A model generated the notes under the pieces. It was not told the DNA's origin, made no database searches, and saw only the letters and a list, made by a program, of their open reading frames with translations. From NCBI GenBank assembly GCA_041648575.1, contig JBAZOT010000003.1, forward strand, positions 14,895 through 78,894: a DNA stretch of 64,000 nt, given 5' to 3'. Below, in pieces: positions 1 through 23,899 of this stretch (positions are counted from its first letter, which is position 1; the number at the start of each line of letters is the position of its first letter). The DNA comes from Patescibacteria group bacterium (lineage in GTDB: Bacteria > Patescibacteriota > Patescibacteriia > Veblenbacterales > UBA10138). Position numbers and translations under genes: made by a program.

Positions 1-250
1 TGAATCCACTATCAATGACTCCAGCTAAAACTGTAATACCGTGCTTAGCAGCCAAGCCTGATTTATCCCAACATAAACCAACGAAACCCTCTGGAATGGC
101 TATAGCCACGCCGGTTCTAATTCCAGAGACATACTTACCTGCCGGAGCAATATAATCCTCCAAAGCAAACAAATCCAACGCAGCATCACCCGGTAAGGCA
201 TAGCTTGGCAATTTTGCGCGCGGATCAACTTTTTTTACTTGCAGTTGCAT
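1..250 (-). CDS. dut: dUTP diphosphatase (dUTPase), N-terminal part; runs off window start
   Basis: Reverse-complement translation from ATG at 250: MQLQVKKVDPRAKLPSYALPGDAALDLFALEDYIAPAGKYVSGIRTGVAIAIPEGFVGLCWDKSGLAAKHGITVLAGVIDSGF. This matches the dUTPase motifs (ATxGSAGxDL-like, GVIDSGYRG-like). Not in the ORF track because it is truncated. Confidence 0.75.
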   Translation of the reverse strand, partial: MQLQVKKVDPRAKLPSYALPGDAALDLFALEDYIAPAGKYVSGIRTGVAIAIPEGFVGLCWDKSGLAAKHGITVLAGVIDSGF

Positions 251-261
251 AAATATCATAT

Positions 262-1272
262 TTACTTATTAGTAATCTTTTCTTTATTAGCCAGATTAGC
301 CAGTTTTTCTTTAGCCCTAACAATACCAGCGGGACAACGATTACCCCAACCATCTAGAAATTTACCTTCTTTTAATACACATATCACTTCACAATTATTT
401 GGACAACCACCACATTCAATACTAACAGTTTTAAATTCAATATCCTGAACATTAAAACTAAAAAGTTTTTCAGATTGTGTATCACGAGCCAACATGGCCA
501 CTCCAATCGCTCCCATTAAATGACCAATTTCATCAACAATGATTTTATGACCTGTAATATTACCGAAAGACCTTACTACTCCAACATTTTTACTAACACC
601 ACCTTGAAAAACAACTGGCGGTTCAATATTTTTTCCTTTGCCAACATTATTTAAATAATTATAAACGATGGAATTACATAACCCAGCAATAATATCCTCT
701 TTAGAATAACCCATCTGCGCTTTATGAACCAAATCCGATTCAGCAAATACAGTACAACGGCCAGCAATTTTAGTTGGCGTATTGGATCTTAAAGCGTAAG
801 TACCAAACTCCTCCACGGGGATGTTTAAACGTCTAGCCTGTGAGGCTAAAAATGAACCGGTACCAGCTGCGCACAGTGTATTCATCGCATAATCAACCAC
901 TACTCCATTATCAATAATAATAAGTTTGCTGTCTTGTCCACCAATTTCAAAAATTGTTCTGACTTCAGGATGGAACGCTAAAGTGCCAATCGCATGAGCA
1001 GTAATCTCATTCTTAATTACAGTAGCCTCTAAAATTGTACCAATCAATTCACGAGCTGAACCAGTGGTACCTACGCCAACTATTGTAAGATTATTACCAT
1101 TAATTTGCTTCTTAACCTCTTTTAGTACCAGTCGAACTGCCCCAATCGGATCACCTTCGGTCCATAGATATGATTGAGCATAAATCCTATTATTATGATC
1201 GATCACTACAGCTTTAGTAGAAATCGAACCAATATCAAACCCTAAATATACTTTAATGGGCGCTGGTAGCAT
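262..1272 (-). CDS. BadF/BadG/BcrA/BcrD-type ATPase (HgdC-like 'CoA-substrate-specific enzyme activase') with C-terminal Cys cluster
   Basis: GFDIGSISTKAVV, EIGGQDSK and CAAGTGSF acetate/sugar-kinase-fold motifs typical of HgdC/YjiL activases. C-terminal CGGCPNNCEV...CPAG Cys motif. Confidence 0.7.
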   Translation of the reverse strand: MLPAPIKVYLGFDIGSISTKAVVIDHNNRIYAQSYLWTEGDPIGAVRLVLKEVKKQINGNNLTIVGVGTTGSARELIGTILEATVIKNEITAHAIGTLAFHPEVRTIFEIGGQDSKLIIIDNGVVVDYAMNTLCAAGTGSFLASQARRLNIPVEEFGTYALRSNTPTKIAGRCTVFAESDLVHKAQMGYSKEDIIAGLCNSIVYNYLNNVGKGKNIEPPVVFQGGVSKNVGVVRSFGNITGHKIIVDEIGHLMGAIGVAMLARDTQSEKLFSFNVQDIEFKTVSIECGGCPNNCEVICVLKEGKFLDGWGNRCPAGIVRAKEKLANLANKEKITNK

Positions 1273-2371
1273 AATTGATTTTAGTGGTATTAGAATTTAA
1301 TTTATCTCTTTTCATAATCAACATATCATAAAAAGCCTCTAAACGTGTTTTAATTCCCGTCTCTGAAGTTTGGGCGTCAAAGCTAAAATAAATAATGGGC
1401 ACTTTATAATCCTTTGATAAACGGTAAAGTGCAGACATCGCATTAACCTCGGGCATACAACCAAAAGGCTTTAAATGAATAATGCCATCAAAACCCTGTT
1501 TAATCAACTTATGGGCTAACGCTACACTTTCTGTACCATGCGCACCTATATGATATTTTAAATATGGACTGGCTAATCTTAACAATTTAGTAATATGCGT
1601 GCCAAAAGAAAAGATATCATGAAGAATACTAGAAACGCTGCAAAAACGGTAAACTTCAATTCCCTTCTTAGCTAATTCCATTTCAATATTAAAATTTGAA
1701 AAAGGTTCCATTAAAACATATAATTCACCAACAATACCAACCCTTACTGGCTTGGTTGGTTTAACTACCTCAATTTCCTTAAATAATTCTTCATACTTTT
1801 TTCTTAATTGATTGATATCTTTTTTTGTACGCACACGCCCCAACTCGGATAAAAAAATTTTAAATAGCCGTTCATATTGACCTGGGTTTTTTTCAAAACC
1901 AATATTTTTTCTGATATAATCCTCTATTTCATCAATAACCTTAACTTTAAAATATGAAAGATAATATGTTTTAAAAAAACGCCAATATGTTAACTCTGAA
2001 TTATAGCTTCTAAAAATTTTAGCCAATGAAATGGGGTTGTAAGTATTAGTTAATTTAATCAGTGTGAATTTATATCCCATATTTTTTAAAATCGCTTCCT
2101 GTACTTCGCCGTAATAACCAAAGCGGCACCCACCACCAGCTTGAATAAGTAAATTAGCGCCACGCTCTAACACCTCAATGTAATTCCCTAAATTATATTT
2201 AAAAGGGACACAAACAGCCTCGGGGCTATATTTAAAACCAAGATCAACGGTCTTCCTGGTAATTGGCGGCGGCGGCACTAATTCTCCACCCAACATTTCT
2301 GCAAATGGTTTAATAGCTACATAATAATTTCCCATTAACGGGAAACTAATTTTTCTGTGTATTTGCTTCAT
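1253..2371 (-). CDS. DUF2229 (YjiM-like, 2-hydroxyacyl-CoA dehydratase-related) protein
   Basis: C-terminal KPFGCMPE...FDAQTSETGIKTRLEAF motif of the DUF2229 'CoA enzyme activase uncharacterised domain'. Overlaps both neighbours by ~20 nt, suggesting translational coupling. Confidence 0.55.
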   Translation of the reverse strand: MKQIHRKISFPLMGNYYVAIKPFAEMLGGELVPPPPITRKTVDLGFKYSPEAVCVPFKYNLGNYIEVLERGANLLIQAGGGCRFGYYGEVQEAILKNMGYKFTLIKLTNTYNPISLAKIFRSYNSELTYWRFFKTYYLSYFKVKVIDEIEDYIRKNIGFEKNPGQYERLFKIFLSELGRVRTKKDINQLRKKYEELFKEIEVVKPTKPVRVGIVGELYVLMEPFSNFNIEMELAKKGIEVYRFCSVSSILHDIFSFGTHITKLLRLASPYLKYHIGAHGTESVALAHKLIKQGFDGIIHLKPFGCMPEVNAMSALYRLSKDYKVPIIYFSFDAQTSETGIKTRLEAFYDMLIMKRDKLNSNTTKINYATSAH

Positions 2372-3302
2372 ATTTCAATTTACTTGCCTTTATTTTTAAA
2401 ATATCAACAAAACTCTCCAAGCGTGTTTTTAATCCAGCTTCTGACTGCAGCTCATCTAAAGTTATTACCACAATCGGAATATCTTTTATTTTATTCTGAC
2501 AAAGATTAATAACTAAAGAATCGGGTCCGCAGGGAAAAGTCATTAAAAATATAATGCCATCAAGATGCGGACGGTAAAGTTCAATAGCACCTAAAAAGTA
2601 TTTATGATAAGTCCAATATAAATCACGAGATAAATTAGTTGCCAATTGACGCGCCTGATCTTCATCAACAATGTTAGAATAAACTAAATCAACACCTTGT
2701 GATTCTAAAAACTTAACAATTGGTACACCCAAAAACGCATCATGTGTAGTGTAGGGGTGTGAAACAATTAATACCAGTGGATTGCTATTATCCCTGTCTT
2801 TAAATTTATTTACCTGATCGTTTACTAATTTTTGGTGATGTTGCTTATATTTTTTCTTTGCCTGAATATAAGCCAAGGCACGAGTAAAGGGATTACTATT
2901 TAATTGTTTTGCCATTAAAAATAAACCTATGCTCTCCCCTTTAAACTTCCCAGCATCTATTGTATAAGTTAAAATATTGATTTTATCAAAGCTATTACGG
3001 ACAATATCAACTAAGGCCATAAACTTAGTACACAAAAATTCACCATGCCGTAACGAAACAATGCGTGGTATAAAAATATAATCAACCTTATCCTTTAAAT
3101 AATCTACATGGCCTAAAAAAATTTTTACTGACAAACAACTTTCATCAACTGCTATATTAATACCCCGAGCCATTATTTCCTTATTAGTCGGCGGACTAAC
3201 AACCAACTGGCAACCTAATCTACTAAAATACTCATGCCAAAAAACAGAATATTTATGATAAAGCAAGGCACGCGGCAAACCAATTTTCTTCATAACGAAC
3301 AT
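2346..3302 (-). CDS. DUF2229 (YjiM-like) protein, paralogue of the downstream ORF
   Basis: Shares the C-terminal pattern (MTFPCGPDS...LDELQSEAGLKTRLESF) with ORF 1253..2371. ATG at 3302. Confidence 0.5.
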   Translation of the reverse strand: MFVMKKIGLPRALLYHKYSVFWHEYFSRLGCQLVVSPPTNKEIMARGINIAVDESCLSVKIFLGHVDYLKDKVDYIFIPRIVSLRHGEFLCTKFMALVDIVRNSFDKINILTYTIDAGKFKGESIGLFLMAKQLNSNPFTRALAYIQAKKKYKQHHQKLVNDQVNKFKDRDNSNPLVLIVSHPYTTHDAFLGVPIVKFLESQGVDLVYSNIVDEDQARQLATNLSRDLYWTYHKYFLGAIELYRPHLDGIIFLMTFPCGPDSLVINLCQNKIKDIPIVVITLDELQSEAGLKTRLESFVDILKIKASKLKYEANTQKN

Positions 3303-3305
3303 GAT

Positions 3306-3878
3306 TTATTTAATATATCTACTAATAATCTTATTCTCAATTTGCTTATATAATTCTCCCAATGTATTTTCATTTATCAACTTAATACTAGCTTTCTTTC
3401 CCAAACGCTTAATATAAACCTCGGTTGGTAAATTTTCTTCGCGTTTAAATTGTTCAATGTTAAAATGCGCTTCGCCAACTTTTTCACTCCTGGCTTTAGC
3501 CCGCTTAAAACGTGTCGCTAAACTCGCAGTAACATAAACTAGTAAAAATCCAGGTATTTTGCTTAAAATCTCATATTCTCCAAGATGTCGTAAACCATCA
3601 ATCACAAATTTATTACCAGTTGTTCCTTCTAACCTAAATTTTAACACCTCGGCCAGTATTCCACCGCCAAATCGCTCACGTAATCCTCCCATCAAATTCA
3701 TCTCATTAACTCTGGTAATGGGTAAATGAAGCCTGTTTAAAATATCTACCACAATTTTAGAAAAACGAAAACTCTTAAACCGGTATCGTTTAACCAAATA
3801 TTTGCTAACCATTTCTTTACCGGAAAGTTTTTCTCCTACCAAAACTGATATTATTTTCTTGGTCTTAATTGTTTTCAT
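3306..3878 (-). CDS. P-loop NMP-kinase-like protein (putative (d)NMP kinase)
   Basis: Variant Walker A VLVGEKLSGKE plus an IDGLRHL motif resembling the IDGFPR NMP-binding motif of adenylate/CMP kinases. Lies between dcd and the DUF2229 genes. Confidence 0.4.
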   Translation of the reverse strand: MKTIKTKKIISVLVGEKLSGKEMVSKYLVKRYRFKSFRFSKIVVDILNRLHLPITRVNEMNLMGGLRERFGGGILAEVLKFRLEGTTGNKFVIDGLRHLGEYEILSKIPGFLLVYVTASLATRFKRAKARSEKVGEAHFNIEQFKREENLPTEVYIKRLGKKASIKLINENTLGELYKQIENKIISRYIK

Positions 3879-3897
3879 AAAATAAACCTAGATTACT

Positions 3898-4464
3898 CTA
3901 GGTTTTAAAATTCTCATAAATTTTACTAGCCTGTGGAACATCGGCACCATAATACTTGGAACGAAGCTCCTTGCTTCCATAAGGCCGTTCGCAAGGAGAA
4001 GACAGTGGCATAAAAGCAATCTGCGCTATAGCCATTTTGTAATATAGCTTTACTGGCAAGTTACCAATATTATGTAGTTCTAAAGTCGGCTTTAATGAAT
4101 TTCCTGGATCAATAAAACCGGCCGTAGCATGAATGATAATTCCAATCCTGCCCAAAGAAGATTTTCCTTCTAAACGCCCTACCATATCATTAGACAAAGT
4201 TATTCTTTCTATAGTAACACCAAGAGCAAATTCGCCTGGGTGTAGAACAAACGGTTGATCTTCTTTAATTTCTACTTTATCCATTAAATCTGGTGTCTTC
4301 TCTCTAACATCAATGCAAACATGACCGGTGTTTTTAAATATCAAAAATTGATTATCCAAATGCAAATCAACAGATGCCGGTTGAATAGATTCATCAAACA
4401 ATGGCTCAATTTTTATTCTACCTTCAGCTAATATTTTTTTAATATCTTTGTCTGATAAAATCAT
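3898..4464 (-). CDS. dcd: dCTP deaminase
   Basis: 188-aa protein MILSDKDIKKIL...ASVDLHLDN...GFIDPG, a typical Dcd family member of the dUTPase fold. Confidence 0.85.
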   Translation of the reverse strand: MILSDKDIKKILAEGRIKIEPLFDESIQPASVDLHLDNQFLIFKNTGHVCIDVREKTPDLMDKVEIKEDQPFVLHPGEFALGVTIERITLSNDMVGRLEGKSSLGRIGIIIHATAGFIDPGNSLKPTLELHNIGNLPVKLYYKMAIAQIAFMPLSSPCERPYGSKELRSKYYGADVPQASKIYENFKT

Positions 4465-4537
4465 ATAATTGGATAAATAATTTTCAATCTACGGCTCATA
4501 ATTTTTTACACTAACCACTGTATTAGTGATCTTTAAA

Positions 4538-5221
4538 CTAAATTACCAAGGGAATGGCTGGCCCCATAGAACAAGTCAATACAGCATTTTTAAGATAAGT
4601 ACCCTTAACGCCTGTAGGTTTAGCCTTGCGTATCGCCTGCAACAGATTTTCAGCGTTTTCCTGTAATTTTATTGCGTCAAATGACATTTTACCAATCATC
4701 TGATGCACATTACCAGATTCATCCACTTTAAAACTAATTTTACCAGAATTAAGTGCTTGCACAACTTTTCCCACATCTGGAGTAATAGTCTCGGTTTTAG
4801 GATTAGGCATTAAACCTTTTTGCCCCAGAATTTTAGCAATCGGTGCCATTTTCTTCATCATACCTGGTGTAGCAACCGCAACATCAAAATCACATTTCCC
4901 AGTGGTGGCTATTATTTTTATTAACTCGTCTCCACCCACAATCGTCGCTCCAGCTGCCTTAGCTTCTTTTTCATTAGCTTCTTCACAAAAAACCGCCACT
5001 TTTTTTAACTTACCTAAACCGTGTGGCAAAGTTGTGAAACCACGCACTTGTTGATTAGCTTGTTTAGTGTCAACTCCCAGTTTGAAATGAATTTCCACCG
5101 ATTGATCAAACTTAGTGGCTGGCATTTGTTTTAAAAGCTCTACTGCTTCTTTAATATTATAACGCTTGCCCGGCTCAATTTTAGAACGGGCAGCTGTATA
5201 TCGTTTACCTGATTTTGACAT
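4538..5221 (-). CDS. rplA: 50S ribosomal protein L1
   Basis: Clear L1 sequence. Canonical position after rplK. Confidence 0.95.
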   Translation of the reverse strand: MSKSGKRYTAARSKIEPGKRYNIKEAVELLKQMPATKFDQSVEIHFKLGVDTKQANQQVRGFTTLPHGLGKLKKVAVFCEEANEKEAKAAGATIVGGDELIKIIATTGKCDFDVAVATPGMMKKMAPIAKILGQKGLMPNPKTETITPDVGKVVQALNSGKISFKVDESGNVHQMIGKMSFDAIKLQENAENLLQAIRKAKPTGVKGTYLKNAVLTCSMGPAIPLVI

Positions 5222-5323
5222 AAATTTTTCCTTTCTTTACTCTCTCGTCCTGCCTATTGGCAGATACAAGATTAGTGGTTCAAACTCCCGATATTAATCA
5301 GGATCCCACCCATATTAATTAAA

Positions 5324-5752
5324 TTATCCTTCTACTGTTAAACCCATTTGCCTGGCAGTACCTTCAATAATTTTCATTGCGGCATTGATATCGTTGGCAT
5401 TTAAATCCGACATCTTTATCTTAGCAATTTCTTCAATTTGTTTCTTAGTAACTTTACCTACTTTCTCTTGCAAAGGCTTACCCGAACCCTTGGTAATACC
5501 AGCGGCTTTTTTAAGCAGCTCGGCTGCCGGCGGAGTTTTTAAAATAAAAGTATAACTGCGATCCTCAAAGACAGTTATTTCACAAGGAATAATATCATTA
5601 CCCTTGTCTTTGGTGGCGGCATTAAATTTAGTGCAGAATTCCTGCAAATTTAATCCATGTTGCCCCAAAGCTGGCCCCACCGGCGGCGCTGGAGTGGCTT
5701 TACCTGCTGATATTTGAAGTTTGATAACTGTTTTTACTTTTTTACCTGCCAT
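5324..5752 (-). CDS. rplK: 50S ribosomal protein L11
   Basis: [33 protein letters not shown], the canonical L11 N-terminus. Confidence 0.95.
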
Positions 5753-5786
5753 ACAAAAATATAAAATTTAAAAATAAAATGCAAAA

Positions 5787-6332
5787 TTAGATCTTTTGAA
5801 TTTGTAAAAAATCCAACTCTACTGGCGTTTCCCGTCCAAACATTGAAACCAATACTTTTACTTTACCCCGACCTTCGTCTACCTCGGATACCTTACCGTC
5901 AAAATCCTTAAAAGGCCCATCACTAATTTTTACTGCCATACCAACAGTCACATCCATTTTATAAGTTGGCTCTTCAATGCCCATTCTTTTTTGCAACGCC
6001 TTCATTTCTTCTTCTGAAACTGGAGTTGGAGTGGTGCCGCTACCAATAAATCCAGTAACATTTGGGGTATTACGCACCACATACCATGAATCATCAGTCA
6101 CCATCATTTCCACTAATACGTATCCTGGAAAAATTTTCTCTTCAACCACTTTACGCTTGCCATTTTTAATGCGAATCTTTTTTTCAGTGGGAATTAAAAT
6201 ATTAAAAATCTTATCACCCATATCCATTGATTCAATACGCTGCTTTAAATTGCGGGTAACATTTTCCTCATAACCAGAATAGGTATGTAGGGCATACCAA
6301 CGTCTACCTTGTTGTATTATCTGTCGCGGCAT
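5787..6332 (-). CDS. nusG: Transcription termination/antitermination factor NusG
   Basis: NGN and KOW domains (WYALHTYSGYE...). The ORF-track start is a TTG at 6344. The ATG at 6332 (MPRQII...) is the more likely start. secE-nusG-rplK-rplA synteny. Confidence 0.9.
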   Translation of the reverse strand: MPRQIIQQGRRWYALHTYSGYEENVTRNLKQRIESMDMGDKIFNILIPTEKKIRIKNGKRKVVEEKIFPGYVLVEMMVTDDSWYVVRNTPNVTGFIGSGTTPTPVSEEEMKALQKRMGIEEPTYKMDVTVGMAVKISDGPFKDFDGKVSEVDEGRGKVKVLVSMFGRETPVELDFLQIQKI

Positions 6333-6482
6333 ATCCAGTAACAATAACTTGACCTGCTAAAAATTAAGCGAGTCAAAAGTTTATTTAATAGTTAGATCGG
6401 TCTTGTTTAAAAAAGATAACATAGATTAATAGTATAGATAATTTCTATCAGCACGAGCTTAAGTCAAGTTTTGTTACTGGAC
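6333..6482. repeat. ~148-bp intergenic element with ~22-bp terminal inverted repeats (copy 1), filling the whole secE-nusG spacer
   Basis: Left arm ccagtaacaataacttgacctgctaaaaattaagcgagtc. Right arm agcttaagtcaagttttgttactgg. The arms are reverse complements, giving a predicted 18+6-bp stem. A second copy lies at 51633..51779. Confidence 0.6.
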
Positions 6483-6487
6483 ATAAT

Positions 6488-6676
6488 TTATTTATATAAT
6501 AATTGCTGCAACCCTATATTAAAAATATAATCTAAGGCGCCTAAAAAAATAGCTACCCCCAAAGAAATACCAATCACCAACAAAGTATGTTGGGTAGTTT
6601 CTTTTTTGGTAGGCCAAACAACCCTTTTAAGTTCTTCAATTGATTGTTTAAAATAATTGGTTAATTTATTAGGCAT
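6488..6676 (-). CDS. secE: Preprotein translocase subunit SecE
   Basis: 62-aa single-TM protein with the conserved VVWPTKKET motif. Upstream of nusG. Confidence 0.8.
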   Translation of the reverse strand: MPNKLTNYFKQSIEELKRVVWPTKKETTQHTLLVIGISLGVAIFLGALDYIFNIGLQQLLYK

Positions 6677-7094
6677 AACGATCTTAAAATCAATTATTCA
6701 TTAAAATAAAACCCAGTTTTTAAAGTCTTTTAAAAGGCCCCTTGCTGGGCCTCTATTAAAAAGAATAGCACGAAGTTAAAATGCTGGCAAGTGCCTAAAA
6801 CACTATTGAAAATTAATAAAAAGCCCTAAATACCGTAGTAGTTGGGAGATAGTGGTGAAGATTATTAAGAATTAATGTTTTGTAGAGAAGATGTGCAGAT
6901 GCACAAGGGGCGAGTTTTTTAGTAGGAGTTTGGGGATACAATTTAAACCTCTAAGTTATAAAGATTTAAATTGTATCCCTGTCACCACGCTACCAACCTG
7001 CCTGTTTTTCCTCTTGTTAATCCTTCTCCACCACCATCTATCTTAATTTTACTCCTAAATTAACAATTTGTCAAATCAACCAAATTTGGATTGC

Positions 7095-7250
7095 GTATAA
7101 CGTATGCGGATATGAGAAGTTGCGAAGCAATTTGGGATGAGACTCTGCAAGAGCCGAGACTCATATCCGCTGTTAGGCGAGGGTGAGCGACCAACGGGAG
7201 CGAAAGTGCAACGCCCCCTTGAGTTCAAACCTGAGCCGTCCCTCAATTTA
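7095..7250. other. GC-rich structured element (candidate ncRNA / repeat family, member A)
   Basis: Local GC is far above the genome background. Perfect 11-bp stem gcggatatgag...ctcatatccgc. Core TAGGCGAGGGTGAG...GGAGCGAAAGTG is shared with 58800..58985. The 3' end (ttaggcga...ttcaaacctgagcc) is repeated in inverted orientation at 8027..8056. Confidence 0.4.
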
Positions 7251-7982
7251 GTTTTTAACATTCTTTTGCTTGATTACAATAATTTGTCCAGTAATATGAT
7301 CTGCCTCTTTTGAAGCTAAAAACAAAGTCAAGCTTGCGACATCTTCGGATTGAAGTGCGTTATCTGGTGTAGCATCATCTGGGAAAAATTTTTTGTACGC
7401 TTCAGTTGCTACATCAGAAGGCGAAATGCAATTAACTTGAATTTGATGATTTCTAAGTTCGTGAGAAAGTCCAACCGTTAAATCTTCAATCGCTTTTTTG
7501 GACACGAAATAAGGAAGCCAACCTTTTGCGCCACTCTCGAAAGTTCCTGAAATGTTGATGATTTTACTACCTTGTTTCATTAAGGAAACGAGTTCGTGTG
7601 ATAAAATGGTTGGCGCAGTTAAACCCACTGCGTAAGTATCCAAAATTTCATCGGTTGAATAATCAGCAAATTCAATCCCTGAAAACGCTTTGTCTTTAGA
7701 GTGCCAAATACCAGCAACATTGACGAGAATATCTATTTCGCCTTCTGACTCCTTGATATTTTGAGCAAACTTTTTTATCTCATCAACACTTCTTAAGTCA
7801 ACACAAAAAATTTTTCCTTCGCTACCTGCTTCTTTAACAAGCTCAAGTGTTTTTTCTAAACCATCTTTGGAGCGAGCCAAAAGCATAGTTTTCGCACCTT
7901 CCGAAGCGAGCTTGACGGATATAGCACGACCAATGCCAATACTTGCACCTGTGATGACGGCAATTTTGTTTTTTAGCTTCAT
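7248..7982 (-). CDS. SDR-family oxidoreductase (short-chain dehydrogenase/reductase)
   Basis: TGASIGIGRA Rossmann motif and an SDR catalytic region. Codon usage is visibly more GC-rich than neighbouring genes. Confidence 0.85.
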   Translation of the reverse strand: MKLKNKIAVITGASIGIGRAISVKLASEGAKTMLLARSKDGLEKTLELVKEAGSEGKIFCVDLRSVDEIKKFAQNIKESEGEIDILVNVAGIWHSKDKAFSGIEFADYSTDEILDTYAVGLTAPTILSHELVSLMKQGSKIINISGTFESGAKGWLPYFVSKKAIEDLTVGLSHELRNHQIQVNCISPSDVATEAYKKFFPDDATPDNALQSEDVASLTLFLASKEADHITGQIIVIKQKNVKN

Positions 7983-8318
7983 AAAATTATTGTAATCATT
8001 AAGGATTTATAAAACAATCGATAGCTTGATAGGCTCAGGTTTGAATTTCGCCTAACTGGTTTATATGTGGAGTAAATGTTTAATATATGCATAAATTTGT
8101 ATGATATGTGGAATAAACTTACAAAATTATTAAATATCTAAATTCTTAACCCACCTCCGCCCTGGCTGCAGGTAAATTTTCCAACCATTTTCTTATTCGC
8201 ACGAATAAGAAAGTAGTAATCCAGGGATAACCACTTAAATACCCAACTTCTTTACCCGCCTCCGCTAAAGCTTCTGGCTTCGCTCTAGCTTAGGCGGACA
8301 ACTCGGTGGGCAGGCATT

Positions 8319-10373
<2,055 letters not shown>

Positions 10374-12881
10374 TTAATGATCTCTAACTTCTGCGTTAAA
10401 TTTTTTAATTAATATTTGCTTAATCTTTTCTATTACCTTGTCCACTTCTTCTGATGTTAATGTCCTATCCGAGGCACGTAAAGTCACGGTAAAGGCGATA
10501 CTGTGTTTAGGGGCGTAAACATCAAATAGTTCAATTGATTCTAATAAATCCATATTCTCAATTTCTTTTTGAATTTGAGACCAAGTTACCCTTTCTGGCA
10601 AAATAATTGATAGATCTCTCGCAGCTTCGGGGTACTCTGGTGGCGGTTCCGATGGGCTGGTCGGCCCTATTTCCAACATATCAAGTGACAACTCAATTAC
10701 TGCAGTAAATTCAGGCAAATCTAACTCCCGTCGTAATTTTTCTTGCAATATCCCGATGTGCCCAACTGTCTCGTTATTAATAATAATATCGGCTGCCATA
10801 TTTTCATTAAACCAGTCATGCTTAATTTTTTGCACTTCCACTAACTTAAAATCATTTTCCAGTTCATGGCCGATCTGTACGAGAACCCCAACCATATCAC
10901 GGTAACACCGGAGGAGGTCATCTCGTTCGTCACGTTTATTTCTACCAAGAACTATACCCAAATGAAACGGCTGTTTGGGTAAATTGCCACCCCCAGGTCT
11001 TCGTAAATACTCCTTACCGGATTCCGCCACAAAGACCCGGCCAATTTCAAACATTTTAACATTTTTATGTTTCTGACTATTTAAACCGGCTTGCCCTAAA
11101 AAGTTGGGTAATAAAGTTGGTCGTAAATAAGGCTTGCCCTGATCTGTTGGGTTTTCTAATTCAATACTTAAATCGCTTGTTATATGTTTACCTCTAATAG
11201 TCAGCCCAAAGTTTTGTAAATCTTTTTCACCCACAAATGAATGACTTAAAGTCTCTGTAAACCCAGCACCAATCAAGCACTCACGAATTTTTTGCATTAA
11301 CAATTGCTTTTCATCGGCCAATGGTTTAGTAATGGTAAAACTCGGCAGACTCGGCGTAATTTTTCCATAACCATAAATCCGTGCTACTTCCTCCAACAAA
11401 TCTTCACGAATTGTTACGTCTCTAGTGGCCCGCCATGAAGGCACGGTTACTTGCCATTTGACCACGCTGTCATCGCGATCCGCCCTGATCGGAGTGGCGA
11501 TCTTATGAGATTGCTTCGATCCGCTCGCAATGACTTTTATTTTAAAACCCAAATTCTCCAATATATTTTTAATCTGGCTATATTTTATTTTCGTACCCAA
11601 ACGCTCATTAATCCAATCGGGATTTACATTAATTTCAACCGGTTTAAATTTTTTAGGATATTCATCAACTAGGTCGCTGGCAACTTTTACGCCTGTAATT
11701 ATTTGTTGCATTATAGCCACAAAGCGCTTAATGCCAATTTCTGCTAGTTCTGGATCCAAAGCTTTTTCAAAACGAACAGATGCTTCGCTGCGTAAACCAA
11801 GTTTGCTGGCTGTTTGTCTTATACTAATCGGATTAAAAGTCGCAGATTCTACCACCAAGTTAGTTGTGCTAGATGAAACCTCACTAAACTCGCCACCCAT
11901 TACGCCAGCCACAGCAATCGCACTTTTATCATCAGCAATAACCAACATCTCACTGGATAATTTTCTGGATTCTCCATCTAGTGTTTTTATTACCTCTCCG
12001 GAGTTTGCTGTTCTGACAACAATTTTTGGAGAAGATAATTTTTGTAGATCAAAAGTGTGCAGTGGTTGGCCAGTTTCCAACATTACATAATTAGCAGCGT
12101 CCACCACATTATTTATTGATCTCATACCCAGGGCTTCTAATCTATTCTTTAACCATGTTGGTGATGAGGTAATCTTAATTCCAGCCAGCACCACCCCCAT
12201 ATACCTGTGGCATAAATCAGAGTTTTTAATTTCAACTTTAAACCCATTAGAGCCTTTTGGCAAATCAGCCAATTCCGGTAGTTTTAATTTTGTATTCCAC
12301 AAAGCTGCTAACTCCCTAGCCACACCCAAATGACTCCACAAATCAGGTCGATGAGTAATTGATTTATTATCAACTTCAATAACCAAATCATCTTTACCTA
12401 AAGCTTTGGCTAATAGTGTTCCAGGTTTAGCATCCAAATACGATAAATCCATAATGCCGTGCTCTGGTTCGTTATCATCAACCAAACCTAATTCTGCGGC
12501 CGAACAAGCCATACCATTACTTTTAACTCCACGAATAGTAGCAGCTTCCAATGACGCAAATTCACCCTCTCCATGCCATTTGACCAACGCGCCAGGTTGA
12601 GCCAGCGCGACTTTCATTCCTTCTTTTAAATTAATTCCTCCGCATACTATTTCCACTGTTTTGCCACCAATATCAACTGTAGCTAACTTTAATTTATCAG
12701 CATTAAGATGTGTTGATACTTTTATAACTAAGCCTACCGTGACTTTATTCAACTTTTCTGCCTCGCTGGTAACTGATTCTACCTCCATAACTGACATAGT
12801 CAAAAGCTCGCCCAACTCGCGCGCACTGATCCGCTTGGGTTTAACTATTAACTCTGCTAATGTTTTGTAAGAAAGATGCAT
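10374..12881 (-). CDS. pheT: Phenylalanine--tRNA ligase beta subunit
   Basis: 835-aa protein with tRNA-binding, B3/B4 and B5 domains and a class II-like C-terminus. Confidence 0.95.
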   Translation of the reverse strand: MHLSYKTLAELIVKPKRISARELGELLTMSVMEVESVTSEAEKLNKVTVGLVIKVSTHLNADKLKLATVDIGGKTVEIVCGGINLKEGMKVALAQPGALVKWHGEGEFASLEAATIRGVKSNGMACSAAELGLVDDNEPEHGIMDLSYLDAKPGTLLAKALGKDDLVIEVDNKSITHRPDLWSHLGVARELAALWNTKLKLPELADLPKGSNGFKVEIKNSDLCHRYMGVVLAGIKITSSPTWLKNRLEALGMRSINNVVDAANYVMLETGQPLHTFDLQKLSSPKIVVRTANSGEVIKTLDGESRKLSSEMLVIADDKSAIAVAGVMGGEFSEVSSSTTNLVVESATFNPISIRQTASKLGLRSEASVRFEKALDPELAEIGIKRFVAIMQQIITGVKVASDLVDEYPKKFKPVEINVNPDWINERLGTKIKYSQIKNILENLGFKIKVIASGSKQSHKIATPIRADRDDSVVKWQVTVPSWRATRDVTIREDLLEEVARIYGYGKITPSLPSFTITKPLADEKQLLMQKIRECLIGAGFTETLSHSFVGEKDLQNFGLTIRGKHITSDLSIELENPTDQGKPYLRPTLLPNFLGQAGLNSQKHKNVKMFEIGRVFVAESGKEYLRRPGGGNLPKQPFHLGIVLGRNKRDERDDLLRCYRDMVGVLVQIGHELENDFKLVEVQKIKHDWFNENMAADIIINNETVGHIGILQEKLRRELDLPEFTAVIELSLDMLEIGPTSPSEPPPEYPEAARDLSIILPERVTWSQIQKEIENMDLLESIELFDVYAPKHSIAFTVTLRASDRTLTSEEVDKVIEKIKQILIKKFNAEVRDH

Positions 12882-12979
12882 GTAATTTCAAAATGTAAAA
12901 ATCAAAATGCAAAATGACAGATTAAACTTTAAAATTAATAAATAATTTTGATTTTTGATTTTTTAATTTTAAATTAACT

Positions 12980-13003
12980 AAAATTGCTCTAAAAATCTTA
13001 AAT
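12980..13003. repeat. 24-bp direct repeat (copy 2) duplicating the 3' end of pheS
   Basis: aaaattgctctaaaaatcttaaat versus aaaattgttctaaaaatcttaaat at 13901..13924. Together they bracket the inserted gene 13035..13880. Confidence 0.6.
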
Positions 13004-13034
13004 TTACTGACAGAAGAAGAAATGATAAATAACC

Positions 13035-13880
13035 CTACTTAATATTTCTTGATGAAGCCTCGTGTAATCCAGTAGATAAATCGCCCTTTGGTTGACTTAG
13101 ACAAAACAATAACACATAATCTTGATCATTATTCTTTGAGGTGTAAGTATAATCTTGATCGGGACAACCTCCTTCCATCCATGGCTGAGGATTACTGGGT
13201 ATCTGCCCCATATACACGGTTTCAAGTTTAGCATCGCAGTGACTCATAAAACCTTTTGAACTTAAACACAACCCACCCACAGCCAACGGTGCGGTGACTT
13301 TTGGATAATAATTTAACTCATCAAAATAAAACTCTAGCACCGTTTGTATTTGCCTTACGTCTGACAATCGTTTACCATCTCGTGATTTTTCTAATTTAGA
13401 ACTACCTGCGGGTAATACGCCAAGTAGAATCACTGCGATAATTATGTAACTCACCACATTAAACAAAACAGTCAATAGTGCGGTTTGACGACGAGTAAAT
13501 CCAAGCTTAAACAACCTACTTTTTACTACCCAGTACTCAATAAAAACAGTCGCGGGGAATAAAAATATGATGAAATAGGCAACATCAGTACCATAACCGT
13601 TTATTGGTAAAATTCCACCAATTATAGAAGTAACAAGATTGGCGATTAAGGATACTAAAATACTTTGCTTCCACGAAATTTCTTTTTTAAAAATCCAGCG
13701 CGAGAAATAGTAAATAGCTAGTGTCTCTGAAATAAAAATTATTGGGTAAATATACCAAACCGGAAGTAATGTATAGATAATTGGGGCTGCTAAATCCGCG
13801 TGGGCTATACCAGGCATCAACAACATGATTCCAATAACAAACAAGAGTCTATTAATTTTTATAATTATAAGTCGATTCAT
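13035..13880 (-). CDS. Membrane protein with C-terminal type IV pilin-like domain (inserted between pheS and pheT)
   Basis: Four predicted TM helices at the N-terminus. C-terminal KLGFTRRQTALLTVLF...GKRLSDVRQIQTVLEFYFDELNYYP resembles the pilin/pseudopilin N-terminal helix followed by the conserved YY..YP region, with paired Cys residues. Flanked by 24-bp direct repeats. Confidence 0.5.
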   Translation of the reverse strand: MNRLIIIKINRLLFVIGIMLLMPGIAHADLAAPIIYTLLPVWYIYPIIFISETLAIYYFSRWIFKKEISWKQSILVSLIANLVTSIIGGILPINGYGTDVAYFIIFLFPATVFIEYWVVKSRLFKLGFTRRQTALLTVLFNVVSYIIIAVILLGVLPAGSSKLEKSRDGKRLSDVRQIQTVLEFYFDELNYYPKVTAPLAVGGLCLSSKGFMSHCDAKLETVYMGQIPSNPQPWMEGGCPDQDYTYTSKNNDQDYVLLFCLSQPKGDLSTGLHEASSRNIK

Positions 13881-13898
13881 AATAGAGTAAATAAAAAA

Positions 13899-14921
13899 TT
13901 AAAATTGTTCTAAAAATCTTAAATCACCCGATAAAAATAGACGGATGTCATCAATCTGATATTTCATCATAACCAAACGAGACAGGCCTAAGCCAAAGGC
14001 AAAACCAGAAAATTTTTCAGGATTTACACCTCCAGCTTTTAATACGTTGGGATGCACTAAACCACAAGGCATCAATTCCACCCAACCAGATTGCTTACAA
14101 ACACTGCAACCTTTACCACCGCAAATAAAGCATTTTACATCCAGCTCAAATCCCGGCTCCACAAATGGAAAATAACCAGGTCGCAATCGAATCTCCACCT
14201 CTTTTTTAAATATTCCTTTTAACAACTCATTCATTACCCCGATCAAATGAGCTACGGTTATACCCTCTGCCACTACCAAACCTTCTAAGTGCCAAAAAGT
14301 ATTATCATGAGAAGCGTCAGTTGCTTCATAACGAAAGACTTTTCCCGGCACTACTGCGCGCAAAGGTGCGCCATATTTTTCCAGAGCCCTTACTTGCACG
14401 GACGAAGTATGAGTACGAAGCAACATCCTGTTGCCACTAATTGGCTTTTTTTCTTTAATATAAAAAGTGTCTTGAATATCTCGTGCTGGATGCCAGGAGG
14501 GAATATTTAAAGCCTCAAAATTATAATACTCGCTTTCCAATTCTGGTCCATCGAGTACCATAAAACCCATAGAGCGAAACAAATCTTCTAGTTCTTTTTG
14601 TACAATGGTTATGGGATGATAATGCCCGCGCGCGGGTTTAATACCAGGCAAAGTAACATCAAAAAATTCATCTAACTCTTTATTATTAGAAATATTTTTT
14701 TGCGTAAAAGCATTTTCTAAATCAACCTTCAACTCATTGGCTAACTTACCTAAACGTGGCCTCTGTTCTATACTAGATGCTTTAACCAATTGCATGACAG
14801 CGGCTAACTCTCCCTTACGGCCTAAATACTTAATCTGCCAATTTCGTAATTCGGCAGTCGAACGTAAAGATGACAATTCAGTCAGCGCTTGTTTTTTTAC
14901 ATTATTAATCTTATCAATCAT
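13899..14921 (-). CDS. pheS: Phenylalanine--tRNA ligase alpha subunit
   Basis: Class II motifs (FRSMGF, NIPSWHPARD, GLGLSRLVM). The last 8 codons lie inside direct repeat copy 1 (13901..13924). Confidence 0.95.
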   Translation of the reverse strand: MIDKINNVKKQALTELSSLRSTAELRNWQIKYLGRKGELAAVMQLVKASSIEQRPRLGKLANELKVDLENAFTQKNISNNKELDEFFDVTLPGIKPARGHYHPITIVQKELEDLFRSMGFMVLDGPELESEYYNFEALNIPSWHPARDIQDTFYIKEKKPISGNRMLLRTHTSSVQVRALEKYGAPLRAVVPGKVFRYEATDASHDNTFWHLEGLVVAEGITVAHLIGVMNELLKGIFKKEVEIRLRPGYFPFVEPGFELDVKCFICGGKGCSVCKQSGWVELMPCGLVHPNVLKAGGVNPEKFSGFAFGLGLSRLVMMKYQIDDIRLFLSGDLRFLEQF

Positions 14922-14924
14922 AAA

Positions 14925-15320
14925 TCAATCTTGTTCAGGCGGAACCTGTCGCCGCATTGATAAAAAGAAAAATTCAATTATTGTTAAAGCCAAAATTAAA
15001 ATAACTAAATTCCACCATGTTAATAATTTTTGATCTTGAAGTAATAAGGCTAACACAATTACGATTCCTAAAGATATTCCTTGACGAAAAGATATAGAAA
15101 CTTGCCTAAACACCACTTCATCTTTGCGCAACCAATAGCGAATTGCAAACCCTATCAATGTGGTAGTGCCAATAATGGCAATAAACAAGGCCAGGTAAAA
15201 AAACACAAACCCCATTGTTCCAGCTGATTCTGGTGCTAAATAATTAATTACCAATAACCAAGCTGCCCAAGCACCACAGGTACTTAACAGCATTAAAAGA
15301 ATATACTGGCGTAATGTCAT
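14925..15320 (-). CDS. Hypothetical small membrane protein (4 predicted TM helices)
   Basis: Hydrophobic profile only. Confidence 0.45.
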   Translation of the reverse strand: MTLRQYILLMLLSTCGAWAAWLLVINYLAPESAGTMGFVFFYLALFIAIIGTTTLIGFAIRYWLRKDEVVFRQVSISFRQGISLGIVIVLALLLQDQKLLTWWNLVILILALTIIEFFFLSMRRQVPPEQD

Positions 15321-15434
15321 GAAAATTATTAAAAATTAAAAAAGGGGTTTTATTTACCCATTTATTTTAGCATATTTTCAGCATTTCTACAAGTCTAAAA
15401 TGTTAATGAAATTATGCCAATTCTACTGCTAACA

Positions 15435-15725
15435 TTAGCCAAAAATTCTCAATCTTTTAACCTTTCCAGGAAACCGTGTTTCCAGGATTTTTAAAATCTC
15501 TTTTTCTGACAATTTTATCTCCTGCCCCAAGACCGAAGAAGAGACTTGAATATGTAAAGTATCATCCTTAAAAAATACGTTGCGAACAATATCTAAAGCA
15601 GAATTTCCCCAACGTTTTGATAAATAACTATTAAATTCTTCAACCATTTGGGCAATAATTGCTTGTTTTAACACCCCGTGATCCAACAACCGCGATGGTA
15701 AAATGCTTTTTAATGATTGGAACAT
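15435..15725 (-). CDS. DUF721/DciA-like protein
   Basis: ~96 aa with the pattern ...W...ALDIVRNVFFKDDTLHIQVSSSVLGQEIKL..., typical of DUF721 proteins that occur near replication genes. Confidence 0.45.
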   Translation of the reverse strand: MFQSLKSILPSRLLDHGVLKQAIIAQMVEEFNSYLSKRWGNSALDIVRNVFFKDDTLHIQVSSSVLGQEIKLSEKEILKILETRFPGKVKRLRIFG

Positions 15726-15727
15726 AG

Positions 15728-17170
15728 TTATTTAATTTTCTTAACTATACCTTTATTAGCGTCTACTTCCACCAAATCGCCATCTTTAAATAATAAAGTG
15801 GCATTATTAGTACCAACTATACAAGGAATCTTTAATTCCCTGGCAGTAATGGCAGCGTGACAAATCAAGCCGCCTTTATTAGTAACAATAGCCGCTGCTT
15901 TTCTCATAGCTGGTAATAAATCAGGACTAGTAGCTTGCGAAAGCAAAATATTACCGCGATTCATCTTTATCATATCTTTAGGTATTTGTATAATCTTTAC
16001 CACCCCTTTGACTTTTCCGGTATAAGCACATTGCCCCCTAGTTTCTTTGGATAAAGACTGTTCTTGTTGAATAATTAAGGAAGAAACATACTTTTTAGCT
16101 TGAGAATCAATCATCATCTGATTGCCTTGCTTATTAACTAAAAAACATGAAAAATGACGTCGTCTTTCTAACGCAGAAATATCTAGCTTCTTTTCCAGAA
16201 TAAACCCAGGCACCTCCCAAGGAAGAAGGAAAGTAAATATTTTCCAGTCATTCACACCTTGTTGTTTTGCAAGCAATCTCCACAGTGCCTCATATGAATA
16301 AAAGCTATGAGTCAAAAGGTCTTTACGTAAACCTTTCTGCCAAATTACGGTCTGGGCTAACTGAACCAGAAATCTCGCTCGATTAGTATAATTTAACTTA
16401 GCCATTAACTCCTGCTGTTGTTTTTTTATTTTATTAAGTTGCAGAGGTAAAGACAAATTAACATTTCCCCTACAGACAGTACCGAACTCTTTCTTAAATT
16501 CTTCAAATAAAATAACTGGACCTAAATATAAATAATCAAGCCAACAATAATTCCTATATAATTTTTTTAAAATTAAGGTGAGCCGATTTTTACTTAATGC
16601 TTTACGGCGGCTAGCTAATAAAGCTAACTTGTAATCTTTTTTTTGATGAAGACTTAATTTGGTAACTTGGCTCAATAATGTCCAATGTTTATTAAAATCC
16701 TTAGCAGAAGAGAATCCTCTCAATTCTTCCATGATTTTATTCGATAGATGATTTTTACCATCAATAATTAAACCGTTTACTATTACTCCACTCACTTGAT
16801 AGAGGTGTTGAAGATTACTAACTTTCATAAACTCCTTCGCTAAACTTGATCTGGATAATTTATCTAACGGTAAATTCCTAAACAACTTAGCGCTCTTAAA
16901 AAATTTATCAGCATAAAGGTTAATCTTATCGTATATCTTGGTACGCCATTTGTTATCATTTAACAAGCGATTAGCGGCAAAGTTGGCTGATTTATTAAAC
17001 TCTTGATCATCAAAAAAATAAGTGCACACACCTTTGTCCATCACTGCTATAACTTTGGTGATATAACTACCACCCCCTAATCGAGGAAAATCATGAACAA
17101 AGCCACGTCCATGGTACCCTAACAATAACCAATGGCCACTAAATATCCTGTCATAAATTAACAGAGCCAT
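15728..17170 (-). CDS. PEP-utilizing enzyme mobile (phosphohistidine swivel) domain protein
   Basis: C-terminal GGLICHAAITARELKIPCIVG, the canonical PEP-utilizers His motif. The N-terminal ~370 aa is not assignable. Confidence 0.55.
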   Translation of the reverse strand: MALLIYDRIFSGHWLLLGYHGRGFVHDFPRLGGGSYITKVIAVMDKGVCTYFFDDQEFNKSANFAANRLLNDNKWRTKIYDKINLYADKFFKSAKLFRNLPLDKLSRSSLAKEFMKVSNLQHLYQVSGVIVNGLIIDGKNHLSNKIMEELRGFSSAKDFNKHWTLLSQVTKLSLHQKKDYKLALLASRRKALSKNRLTLILKKLYRNYCWLDYLYLGPVILFEEFKKEFGTVCRGNVNLSLPLQLNKIKKQQQELMAKLNYTNRARFLVQLAQTVIWQKGLRKDLLTHSFYSYEALWRLLAKQQGVNDWKIFTFLLPWEVPGFILEKKLDISALERRRHFSCFLVNKQGNQMMIDSQAKKYVSSLIIQQEQSLSKETRGQCAYTGKVKGVVKIIQIPKDMIKMNRGNILLSQATSPDLLPAMRKAAAIVTNKGGLICHAAITARELKIPCIVGTNNATLLFKDGDLVEVDANKGIVKKIK

Positions 17171-17175
17171 ATTAT

Positions 17176-17889: not shown

Positions 17890-17896
17890 ATATTTA

Positions 17897-20929: not shown

Positions 20930-21035
20930 AACTTTAGTTTATCAATCATTGACAAATTAGACTAGATGGTGTAAAATGTTTTTACAAAAAACAAAGTATT
21001 ATTTACAATATCTAAATATAGAAAGGAAAACTGCA

Positions 21036-21263
21036 ATGATAAATACATCTGGTTGCTCAATGGCCGTTATTGTTGGTATATGTCTAATACTTATGGCTGA
21101 TTTTATTGCACTTATGGGTGCGATCCCACAATATAACTCCATGATTATAATACTCGCGATTGTAATAATGGCAATGGGAATTTTGACACTTAGTATTTCC
21201 GCGTATTTTTGGTTAAATAGACTTGACCATAATCAGGGGGAAATATTGAAAAAATTAAAATAA
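21036..21263 (+). CDS. Hypothetical small membrane protein
   Basis: GAAAGGA ribosome-binding site 8 nt upstream of the ATG at 21036. Two TM helices. The ORF track places the start earlier, at 20976. Confidence 0.4.
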   Translation: MINTSGCSMAVIVGICLILMADFIALMGAIPQYNSMIIILAIVIMAMGILTLSISAYFWLNRLDHNQGEILKKLK

Positions 21264-22472: not shown

Positions 22473-22492
22473 AAATTTTAAACACTTAGAAT

Positions 22493-23899
<1,407 letters not shown>

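Follow-up and report, generated by a model that had tools for sequence, protein, structure and literature searches.

Two related inverted-repeat elements were found in the 64,000-nt stretch of Patescibacteria DNA analysed here (the window): copy 1 lies between secE and nusG, and copy 2 between recO and a gene specifying a 630-aa protein (Table 1). All of the genes surrounding the two copies are on the minus strand. Both had been described in an earlier note made from the sequence, with coordinates that proved right to within 1-5 nt. On the transcribed strand, copy 1 reads TAA(secE stop)-ATT-ATG/TCCAGTAACAAAACTTGAC TTAAGC ... GCTTAA TTTTTAGCAG GTCAAGTTATTGTTACTGGA/T-ATG(nusG), the slashes marking the ends of the element, with 10 nt (N10) separating the GCTTAA block from the 3' arm GTCAAGTTATTGTTACTGGA; the secE stop codon is 6 nt away and the nusG ATG 1 nt away. 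Copy 2 reads TAA(recO stop)-A-T-ATG/CCTAGTAAC ... GTTACTGGG/T-ATG(630-aa protein), its ends being as in copy 1. The arms, of 19 and 20 nt, pair with a single bulged base, which is located in the 3' arm. Identity between the copies is 81-84% overall and 96-100% in the arms and subterminal blocks, in agreement with the earlier account of a second copy having the same ends and a diverged middle.

Table 1. Positions of the two elements, their parts and the relevant genes in the 64,000-nt window
Feature	Position	Strand	Description
Copy 1	6334..6481	-	Probable non-autonomous MITE-like element, 148 bp, secE/nusG spacer
Copy 1, 5' arm	6463..6481	-	TCCAGTAACAAAACTTGAC, 19 nt
Copy 1, 3' arm	6334..6353	-	GTCAAGTTATTGTTACTGGA, 20 nt, one bulged base
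Copy 1, upstream TATG	6482..6485	-	Part of the target-site duplication
Copy 1, downstream TATG	6330..6333	-	Part of the duplication; ATG at 6330-6332 is the present nusG start
Copy 1, vestigial mini-ORF	6464..6484	-	MSSNKT*, remnant of the nuclease N-terminus MPSNKTS
Copy 1, inner pairing block	6457..6462	-	TTAAGC, partner GCTTAA
Copy 1, inner pairing block	6364..6369	-	GCTTAA, partner TTAAGC
Copy 2	51634..51774	-	Probable non-autonomous element, 141 bp, recO/630-aa gene spacer
Copy 2, 5' arm	51756..51774	-	CCTAGTAACAAAACTTGAC
Copy 2, 3' arm	51634..51653	-	GTCAAGTTTTTGTTACTGGG
Copy 2, upstream TATG	51775..51778	-	Preceded by the recO stop TAA, then A
Copy 2, downstream TATG	51630..51633	-	ATG at 51630-51632 starts the 630-aa protein
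Copy 2, vestigial mini-ORF	51757..51777	-	MPSNKT*
nusG	5787..6332	-	Host gene next downstream from copy 1; 181 aa, counted from the true ATG start and not from the TTG at 6344
secE	6488..6676	-	Host gene upstream of copy 1
630-aa protein gene	49740..51632	-	Host gene downstream of copy 2
recO	51780..52529	-	Host gene upstream of copy 2
GIY-YIG gene	60293..60553	-	86 aa; the sole GIY-YIG gene in the window; 47% identical to the element nuclease, without element arms

Each arm was matched twice within the window, where approximately zero matches are expected, and two matches were obtained in 0 of 100 shuffles. Solo arm-like matches in the window (e.g. at 32052) are due to chance and lie inside coding sequence, and the source contig (record positions 5333-88321, ~83 kb) contained neither copies beyond the two nor a full-length parent. 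A Logan assembly and ENA entry ERZ27249422 (101 kb) contain the same contig, in both cases with copy 1. That the inverted repeats arose by chance or through misassembly is a negligible prospect: nothing but the AT-rich composition can be cited for it, two matches never arose in the shuffles, and identical copies recur in the independent ENA and Logan assemblies.

A TATG direct repeat stands on either side of copy 1 and of copy 2. Since both copies are flanked in this way, the repeats bear the signature of a target-site duplication, the insertions having been made into TAA-ATT-ATG (copy 1) and TAA-A-T-ATG (copy 2). The upstream TATG supplies the ATG of a mini-ORF, and the downstream one that of the host gene; in copy 1 the upstream ATG, 3 nt past the secE stop, is the former place of the nusG ATG. 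The mini-ORFs (ATGTCCAGTAACAAAACTTGA and ATGCCTAGTAACAAAACTTGA) were confirmed in the window copies, of which this six-codon stump is the only ORF content.

The 'MLLxM' N-terminus that the two downstream gene products had been said to share is an artefact: it appears when the longest ORF is listed, a TTG within the 3' arm then being taken as the start. The 80 NusG orthologues, without exception, begin at the ATG with M-[PSA]-[RK]-Q, and the 630-aa protein has orthologues of 625-639 aa, in agreement with an ATG start as well. A Shine-Dalgarno sequence is indeed absent upstream of both genes, but this is not specific to the element: an SD-like 4-mer precedes just 6 of 50 long ORFs against a 6% background, so that its absence is genome-wide.

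The RNA of the two copies is predicted to fold with energies of -41.2 kcal/mol (copy 1; z -5.2) and -37.8 kcal/mol (copy 2; z -6.1), the downstream AUG sitting within the basal stem in both, and the DNA fold gave a z of -4.2. These folds support the long interrupted stem, downstream AUG included, that had been proposed for the transcript. A strong and non-random stem that includes the AUG, in an element lying on the transcribed strand upstream of genes (one reversed copy is known), is what a cis-regulatory mRNA element would offer, whether as an RNase III site or as a leader controlling downstream translation through a functional leader peptide, M(S/P)SNKT. Rfam, however, returned no match at the gathering threshold nor at E<=1. 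An internal sigma-70 promoter was considered and rejected; the TTGACT/TTGACA in the 5' arm is without a properly spaced -10 box.

The secE-nusG junction was compared in 80 loci retrieved by NusG; the host was placed in Patescibacteria near Veblenbacteria, Kerfeldbacteria and Uhrbacteria. The spacer is 15 nt or shorter in about half of these relatives. In the closest ones (93% NusG identity) it measures 1-13 nt and holds a single (T)ATG (e.g. TAA-ACT-ATG); these short, element-free junctions represent empty sites for copy 1, and they speak against a regulatory element belonging to this junction. Among the 80 junctions a homologous short copy occurs in L007 only, at the same TATG. Its arms are changed in a compensating way, and it shows 87% identity with copies from different loci in other genomes and less than 77% with copy 1, and so represents an independent insertion. 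In addition, the nusG TATG of L011 is occupied by a tandem pair of full-length elements whose arms belong to a related family. The junction occupied by copy 2 contains unrelated spacers of 77-90 nt in relatives.

Further copies, whose absence the earlier note had named as a ground for refutation, are numerous. While exact 22-mers from either element end had no match in genome contigs or metagenome contigs, and two patterns searched in viral contigs had none there, the gapped two-arm pattern GTAACAAAACTT-N95-125-AAGTTNTTGTTAC gave 41 more matches, distributed over 39 stretches of JGI metagenome contigs and numbering as many as 3 on a single contig. This pattern demands both arms intact, so that the copy statistics cover such copies only. 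Removal of duplicates left 37 unique copies, the ends of which are CCCAG...CTGGG save for a few compensated or wobble variants; the family as a whole was found in JGI, NCBI and ENA data. In 28 of the 37 an ATG located 0-1 nt past the 3' arm opens a same-strand ORF (at least 80 aa in 26 cases, the other 2 ORFs being cut by the contig end). Three copies adjoin another element copy, and in tandem arrays one TATG is common to neighbouring units. Two copies, with TTGA flanks, lie in the -35 box of a promoter; the notion that these flanks are TTG start codons was ruled out, since the boxes are 55 and 118 nt upstream of real genes. One copy is reversed, at an opposite-strand ATG (L112), orientation being otherwise nearly fixed.

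Flank repeats were scored at 40 loci. They were TATG (23), ATGA (3), TTGA (2), and TATGA, CATG, ATG, CTGG, TCAAA and CATA (1 each), and the remaining 6 loci showed no exact flank repeat, 3 of these having CATG versus TATG. Because the flanks differ in sequence and are duplicated all the same, the target-site duplication is real, with a target preference for (T)ATG. Identity reaches 93-99% (maximum 99.3%) between copies that sit at unrelated loci and differ in their flanks, which points to recent movement. The element is thus mobile now or was so recently; its insertion generates a duplication of about 4 bp, with (T)ATG as the preferred target, and surviving copies are found mainly at start codons and in a single orientation.

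These flanks also bear on the type of movement. A single-strand element of the IS200/IS605 or REPIN/RAYT type, mobilised by an HUH Y1 transposase, would suit the hairpin-dependent architecture, the 4-nt target, the near-fixed orientation and the many short derivatives. Such an element is very improbable, however, as flanks are duplicated whatever their sequence (TTGA, CTGG, TCAAA, ATGA), whereas peel-and-paste gives no duplication, and no HUH/Y1 gene is associated, a GIY-YIG gene being the only ORF between the arms. Peel-and-paste without duplication was rejected for its conflict with the duplicated flank data; the cutting and religation of sticky ends at TATG, taken as the whole mechanism, fits the fixed orientation and was rejected for its conflict with the non-TATG duplicated flanks.

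The 19/20-nt arms with one bulge are kept in all 42 family members folded. Inner-arm variants between subfamilies are always compensated (CTTGAC/GTCAAG, CTTCAC/GTGAAG, CTTTAG/CTAAAG), the second stem likewise shows compensatory pairs, and the conserved CAAAAT block of one subfamily is explained by pairing; covariation, which the earlier note had suggested looking for in relatives, is therefore present. Single-sided stem changes favour G-U over A-C by 14 to 4 on the sense strand, which is weak evidence given that they were counted over copies that are not independent. This bias fits a sense-strand structure, such as a regulatory RNA, and fits a single-stranded DNA hairpin equally well. In other subfamilies the mini-ORF runs to 13-17 codons and its stop is not conserved, so that the description of a conserved M(S/P)SNKT* is good for both window copies and does not extend to the length or stop elsewhere; the stump ORF ends after six codons because the 'CTTGAC' arms of the window copies place a TGA in frame. 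A functional leader peptide is poorly served by such variation, the mini-ORF being explained as a nuclease N-terminus (see below), and neither the target-site duplications, nor the dozens of dispersed copies before unrelated genes, nor the tandem arrays are expected of a cis-regulatory element, which we regard as an unlikely explanation. The earlier note is therefore partly supported: its structural reading is correct, and a better explanation is available than a dedicated leader or RNase III site carrying a conserved mini-ORF. RNase III processing or a translational effect are possible as secondary consequences of the element.

Full-length members of the family were found by fuzzy arm searches in about 1 Mb of fetched loci. 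They are ~310 bp long and consist of a 5' arm (CCCAGTAACAAAACTT..., 19 nt), one ORF, a subterminal hairpin and a complementary 3' arm (...AAGTTNTTGTTACTGGG, 20 nt) that holds the stop codon of the ORF, with a 4-bp direct repeat, usually TATG, around the whole. In L084, for example, the sequence is TATG/CCCAGTAACAAAACTTCACAG ATA TTC TAC ... AAG TGA AGTTGTTGTTACTGGG/TATG, and the ORF is in frame from the flanking ATG across the 5' arm to a stop inside the 3' arm. The N-terminus MPSNKTS of the encoded nuclease is consequently translated from the 5' arm, beginning at the duplicated host ATG. The order (T/C)ATG, 5' arm, ORF, 3' arm, TATG, followed by a host gene or another element, was observed at 8 independent loci: between dnaA and a T2SS-ATPase gene (L132), between an ABC ATPase and a permease gene (L122), between a divergent promoter and a holin-like gene (L138), between secE and nusG (L011), between rpoC and the next gene (L157), in front of ftsW (L158), and at L084 and L156. 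Assembly scaffolds have gaps that start at the arm. The arm of every full-length copy examined lacks stop codons and shares the reading frame of the host ATG. In full-length elements the stop of the nuclease ORF precedes the host ATG by 18 nt, and codon 9 is usually ATG or GTG, so that an internal start is possible. The arms of L156 (CCCCGTGAAGCAAAATCCAA / TTGGATTTTGCCTTACGGGG) are quite different with the geometry unchanged, and since they still pair, it is complementarity and not sequence that is conserved. A subterminal sequence, GTTTGGC(T/A)TCGCAAGTGAAGTT, is common to the short copy L085 and the full-length L084, and such sharing identifies the short copies as deletion derivatives.

The element ORF specifies a single-domain GIY-YIG protein of 91-100 aa with no second domain, matching PF01541 at 55.2 bits (cut-off 22.6; E 9e-15). 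The catalytic Y/Y-I-G/R/H/E positions are conserved: residues Y13, G26, T28, R34, H38, E58 and E70 are invariant in 24 sequences, and Y24 is nearly so (>=90%). A protein search returned 401 close homologues of ~100 aa in Patescibacteria MAGs, nearly all of which start with MPSN(K/N)TS and finish with ...RHFRAN.VWHRK; 1,021 cluster representatives match at E<=1e-10. NCBIfam gave only sub-threshold matches to group-I-intron endonucleases. The best PDB sequence matches are to the UPF0213 proteins 1ZG2 and 1YWL. UPF0213 proteins form the Slx1/YhbQ/YazA group of structure-selective nucleases (PMC7017083).

The hallmark of DDE-type transposition is the combination of terminal inverted repeats with a target-site duplication that is short and variable, and GIY-YIG enzymes are not known for strand transfer. 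An ordinary MITE, moved by a DDE-type transposase encoded elsewhere, with the GIY-YIG ORF as a passenger or nested insertion, therefore had to be weighed. The evidence makes it rather unlikely. About 1 Mb of fetched loci held no conventional IS having these termini, and no transposase gene, nor anything but the GIY-YIG ORF, was enclosed by arm pairs in them. Both at the 8 independent loci and in about 400 homologues, the ORF runs from within the 5' arm to within the 3' arm; an ORF that spans from arm to arm implies long-term linkage, unlike a passenger. The arms drift, even to unrelated sequences as in L156, and yet stay complementary, which points to the recognition of structure, and the orientation is nearly fixed, unlike that of typical DDE MITEs.

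The window elements are, with high probability, non-autonomous, internally deleted (MITE-like) members of a tiny Patescibacteria mobile-element family with a GIY-YIG parent. The window copies are shorter than ~300 bp, have no complete ORF, and possess terminal inverted repeats, a target-site duplication, dispersed copies, an empty site (copy 1) and a coding relative, all of which are features of MITEs. The observations behind this assignment are the anatomy, the duplication, the copy number, the near-identical dispersed copies, the empty site, the recurrent hits on the nusG TATG and the ends held in common with nuclease-bearing elements. The window copies no longer have the nuclease ORF and retain its stump, along with both arms, the subterminal blocks and the duplicated TATG; the mini-ORF M(S/P)SNKT* is the truncated nuclease N-terminus, and it has been kept because the 5' arm has been kept. 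A point against this assignment is that the ~83 kb of source contig contains no full-length cognate, and that the GIY-YIG gene of the window is just 47% identical and armless; that gene is a possible source of nuclease in trans.

Insertion takes place at (T)ATG, in most cases at a host start codon, and nearly all copies point the same way. Of the two ATGs, the upstream one keeps the initiation context of the host gene and heads the element ORF, and the downstream one stays as the host start. By analogy with the Ssn nucleases considered below, the GIY-YIG nuclease may mobilise full-length and deleted copies alike by recognising the arm hairpin. If the nuclease read this hairpin on one strand, this would account for the covariation of the arms, the retention of the bulge, the fixed orientation and an offset of 4 nt, although the orientation bias could come from selection instead of mechanism. 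To our knowledge no GIY-YIG nuclease acts as a transposase, and we know of no strand-transfer chemistry for these hydrolytic enzymes; with hydrolytic chemistry, the 4-bp duplication would need host repair or another mechanism.

In the mRNA, the sequence just past the old gene junction would pair with that just before the host AUG in a stem of ~20 bp. One might speculate that a ribosome ending at secE or recO, or one initiating at the duplicated AUG (the stump ORF), melts the 5' arm and frees the real AUG. The upstream ATG lies 2-3 nt past the upstream stop codon, which is its native context, and the position of the nuclease stop in full-length members would suit termination-reinitiation. The opening of the stem by upstream ribosomes would explain why an insertion before an essential, SD-less gene is tolerated. 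This translational relay is conjectural, and the stop position of the mini-ORF, which is not conserved across subfamilies, counts against it.

Taking these proposals together, the parent might represent a new class of minimal autonomous transposon, with an Ssn/UPF0213-like GIY-YIG mobiliser, recognition of the arm hairpin, strand-specific insertion at (T)ATG, and a start-codon parasitism in which translation is handed back to the host gene. On the sequences available we put this forward tentatively, its chances being a little short of even. If it is true, a role would be provided for a large family of hypothetical small GIY-YIG proteins, prokaryotic transposition would gain a new catalytic class, and an autonomous transposon of ~310 bp would be among the smallest conceivable. 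Should the nuclease drive mobility, a new enzymatic route of transposition and a compact, site-specific nuclease/hairpin pair would result.

What had seemed a local oddity is recast as a widespread Patescibacteria mobile-element family, the close nuclease subfamily of which has about 400 members; the matching proteins are currently annotated just as 'GIY-YIG nuclease family protein'. An element that inserts exactly at a start codon and duplicates the ATG borrows host expression signals in an unusual manner, without killing the gene, and it offers a natural system for the study of initiation in the SD-poor, possibly leaderless-prone CPR bacteria. In practical terms, the repeats break assemblies and mislead gene callers, the 'MLLxM' extension and spurious mini-ORFs being examples.

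A full-text literature search revealed no description of this element architecture. Correia/NEMIS elements and other MITEs resemble the short copies in size (100-160 bp), terminal inverted repeats, short duplication, intergenic position and co-transcription, and the hairpins of Correia/NEMIS elements in Neisseria can be cut by RNase III, altering expression. Correia elements, however, are found in either orientation, produce a TA duplication and lack a coding parent of this kind, in contrast to the (T)ATG target, the start-codon position and the GIY-YIG origin found here. The Seg proteins of T4 and I-TevI are likewise selfish GIY-YIG genes wedged between host genes. GIY-YIG homing enzymes possess a separate DNA-binding domain (~250 aa in total), spread by homologous repair, and have neither inverted repeats nor duplication; they are bound to one locus, whereas the present family occupies many non-homologous loci. 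At rpmI-rplT and in the MS2 coat-replicase region a downstream start is paired with an upstream segment and opened by translating ribosomes; the comparable pairing predicted here is a by-product of transposon arms.

REPIN/RAYT and IS200/IS605 systems likewise combine a small nuclease gene with numerous short non-autonomous derivatives that form hairpins. They share with this family a target of four nucleotides and a specificity for strand or orientation, and in them, too, structure is recognised rather than a fixed terminal sequence. They differ in employing an HUH Y1 transposase, in making no target-site duplication, in having subterminal hairpins and in not using start codons.

The Ssn nucleases and their NTS/SRM hairpin repeats were described by Chenal et al. 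(Nat Commun 2025; PMC11893778). These single-domain GIY-YIG enzymes bind a single-stranded DNA hairpin in one orientation and cut a few nt upstream, and their NTS-ssnA-NTS layout was likened to an insertion sequence, mobility being put forward as a hypothesis only (PMC11893778). The present data add sequence-level evidence for the mobility of small single-domain GIY-YIG genes with hairpin repeats. The proteins are of similar size (~94 aa in Ssn, 91-100 aa here), and Y6, Y17 and E64 of SsnA have counterparts in Y13, Y24 and E70 here, after a 7-residue extension encoded by the arm. Both systems have hairpin-forming repeats on either side of the nuclease gene, together with many gene-less repeats dispersed beside genes. 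Recognition is directional in Ssn; for a strand-specific cleavage of single-stranded DNA beside the hairpin, the near-fixed orientation and the sense-strand bias of G-U over A-C are indirect hints here. The comparison with Ssn (clade cd10448) rests on size, catalytic spacing and layout, the best structure matches here being UPF0213 proteins. Each Ssn flank is its own palindrome of 20-50 nt, whereas the flanks here are mutually complementary and the whole element is one hairpin; a single local hairpin, near the 3' arm, is SRM-like, and flanking self-palindromic repeats are lacking. The 4-bp duplications, empty sites, start-codon insertion and arm-through ORF observed here have not been reported for Ssn. 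The parent falls outside any described IS family found; its closest counterpart is Ssn/NTS and, in logic, REPIN/RAYT and IS200/IS605.

A GCTCG motif is kept on both sides of the internal loop in the CAC/GAC subfamily of short element copies, to which the copies of the window belong (columns ~21–30 and ~115–130 of alignment A2). The two occurrences (AAGCTCG... and ...CTCGCTT) are direct repeats without mutual pairing and may constitute a protein-binding site.

Among the loci fetched for comparison (L-numbers), the TTGA-flanked copies lie in promoter -35 hexamers: one promoter, TTGAAT-17-TATAGT, precedes a lepB-like gene, the other, TTGACT-17-TATCAT, precedes uvrA, and in each the target duplication restores the -35 box. 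The TTGG/TTGA flanks of a 92%-identical sister copy in L089 hint that the target may have shifted in one sublineage. A second arm family, CCC(A/C)GTAATACAACTT...AAGTTGATATAC(T/C/G)GGG, has short copies of its own, which frequently stand in tandem with elements of the first family and have the TATG in common with them; a nested insertion was also observed.

Coordinates of the features described (window positions, or positions within comparison loci)
Feature	Position	Strand	Remarks
Stretch without convincing ORF, 570 nt	6677..7247		upstream of secE
26-nt palindrome TTTACC(C/T)...CGCGCGAAAGGGTAAA, two copies	32717..32755 and 33073..33111
HTH (ArsR-like) ORF, 92 aa	32778..33056	(-)
GIY-YIG gene, 86 aa	60293..60553	(-)	PF01541, E 1.4e-16
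tmRNA	60699..61081	(-)	sole Rfam gathering-level match in window
TTGA-flanked element copies	L085 433-584; L120 2522-2664		reverse-strand coordinates
Sister copy, 92% identical	L089 about 6297-6440		flanks TTGG/TTGA
Second-arm-family copies	L121 2417-2700; L117 6083 onward; L104 6800 onward; L122 2319-2480; L158 about 1025-1150
Nested insertion	L117 5837-6081
N-run starts at element 3' arm	L124, L126, L128, L129, about position 2310 or 1215

The repeat family breaks up metagenome assemblies: in several ENA assemblies the scaffold gaps (N runs) start exactly at the 3' arm of a full-length element and many nuclease homologues are located on contigs of <2 kb.

The junctions occupied in the window hold other sequences in relatives. 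The secE-nusG spacers of L012/L015, L018, L022, L023/L030 and L028, and likewise the spacers between recO and the gene for the 630-aa protein in L152 and L153, contain inverted-repeat sequences of 80–150 nt which are unrelated to the window elements and lack TATG flanks. These tight junctions seem to gather several distinct hairpin elements.

No tRNA genes were found in the 64 kb window (1..64000). The stretch upstream of secE contains neither a convincing ORF nor a tRNA, and Rfam gave no match to it even at E<=1; its GC content is higher around 7060–7260, and a terminator-like hairpin (GGCCCAGCAAGGGGCC + TTTT) immediately precedes secE. The two palindrome copies, 356 bp apart, bracket the HTH ORF; they resemble a pair of operators, or else a further small repeat. 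SD-like motifs are scarce (6/50 long window ORFs) and a -10-like box lies 5–9 nt upstream of the ATG in many genes, both in the window and in the left flanks of L083 (TTGACA-17-TATACT-6-ATG), L094, L101, L102 and L113, which together suggest that leaderless or near-leaderless mRNAs are frequent in these organisms.

The lone GIY-YIG gene of the window, with tmRNA and infC as its neighbours on either side, specifies a protein showing 47% identity to the element-borne nuclease; the CCCAGTAA arms of the element family are absent at this gene. Its upstream spacer (145 nt, reaching 60698) contains two copies of ACTTCATGGCG; in the same spacer ATGAAGTATATGC and GCATATACTTCAT form an inverted repeat of 13 bp, and GCCCTAAAGT...ACTTTAAGGGC makes a hairpin. 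Gene and spacer repeats may represent a separate, Ssn-like nuclease/repeat pair.
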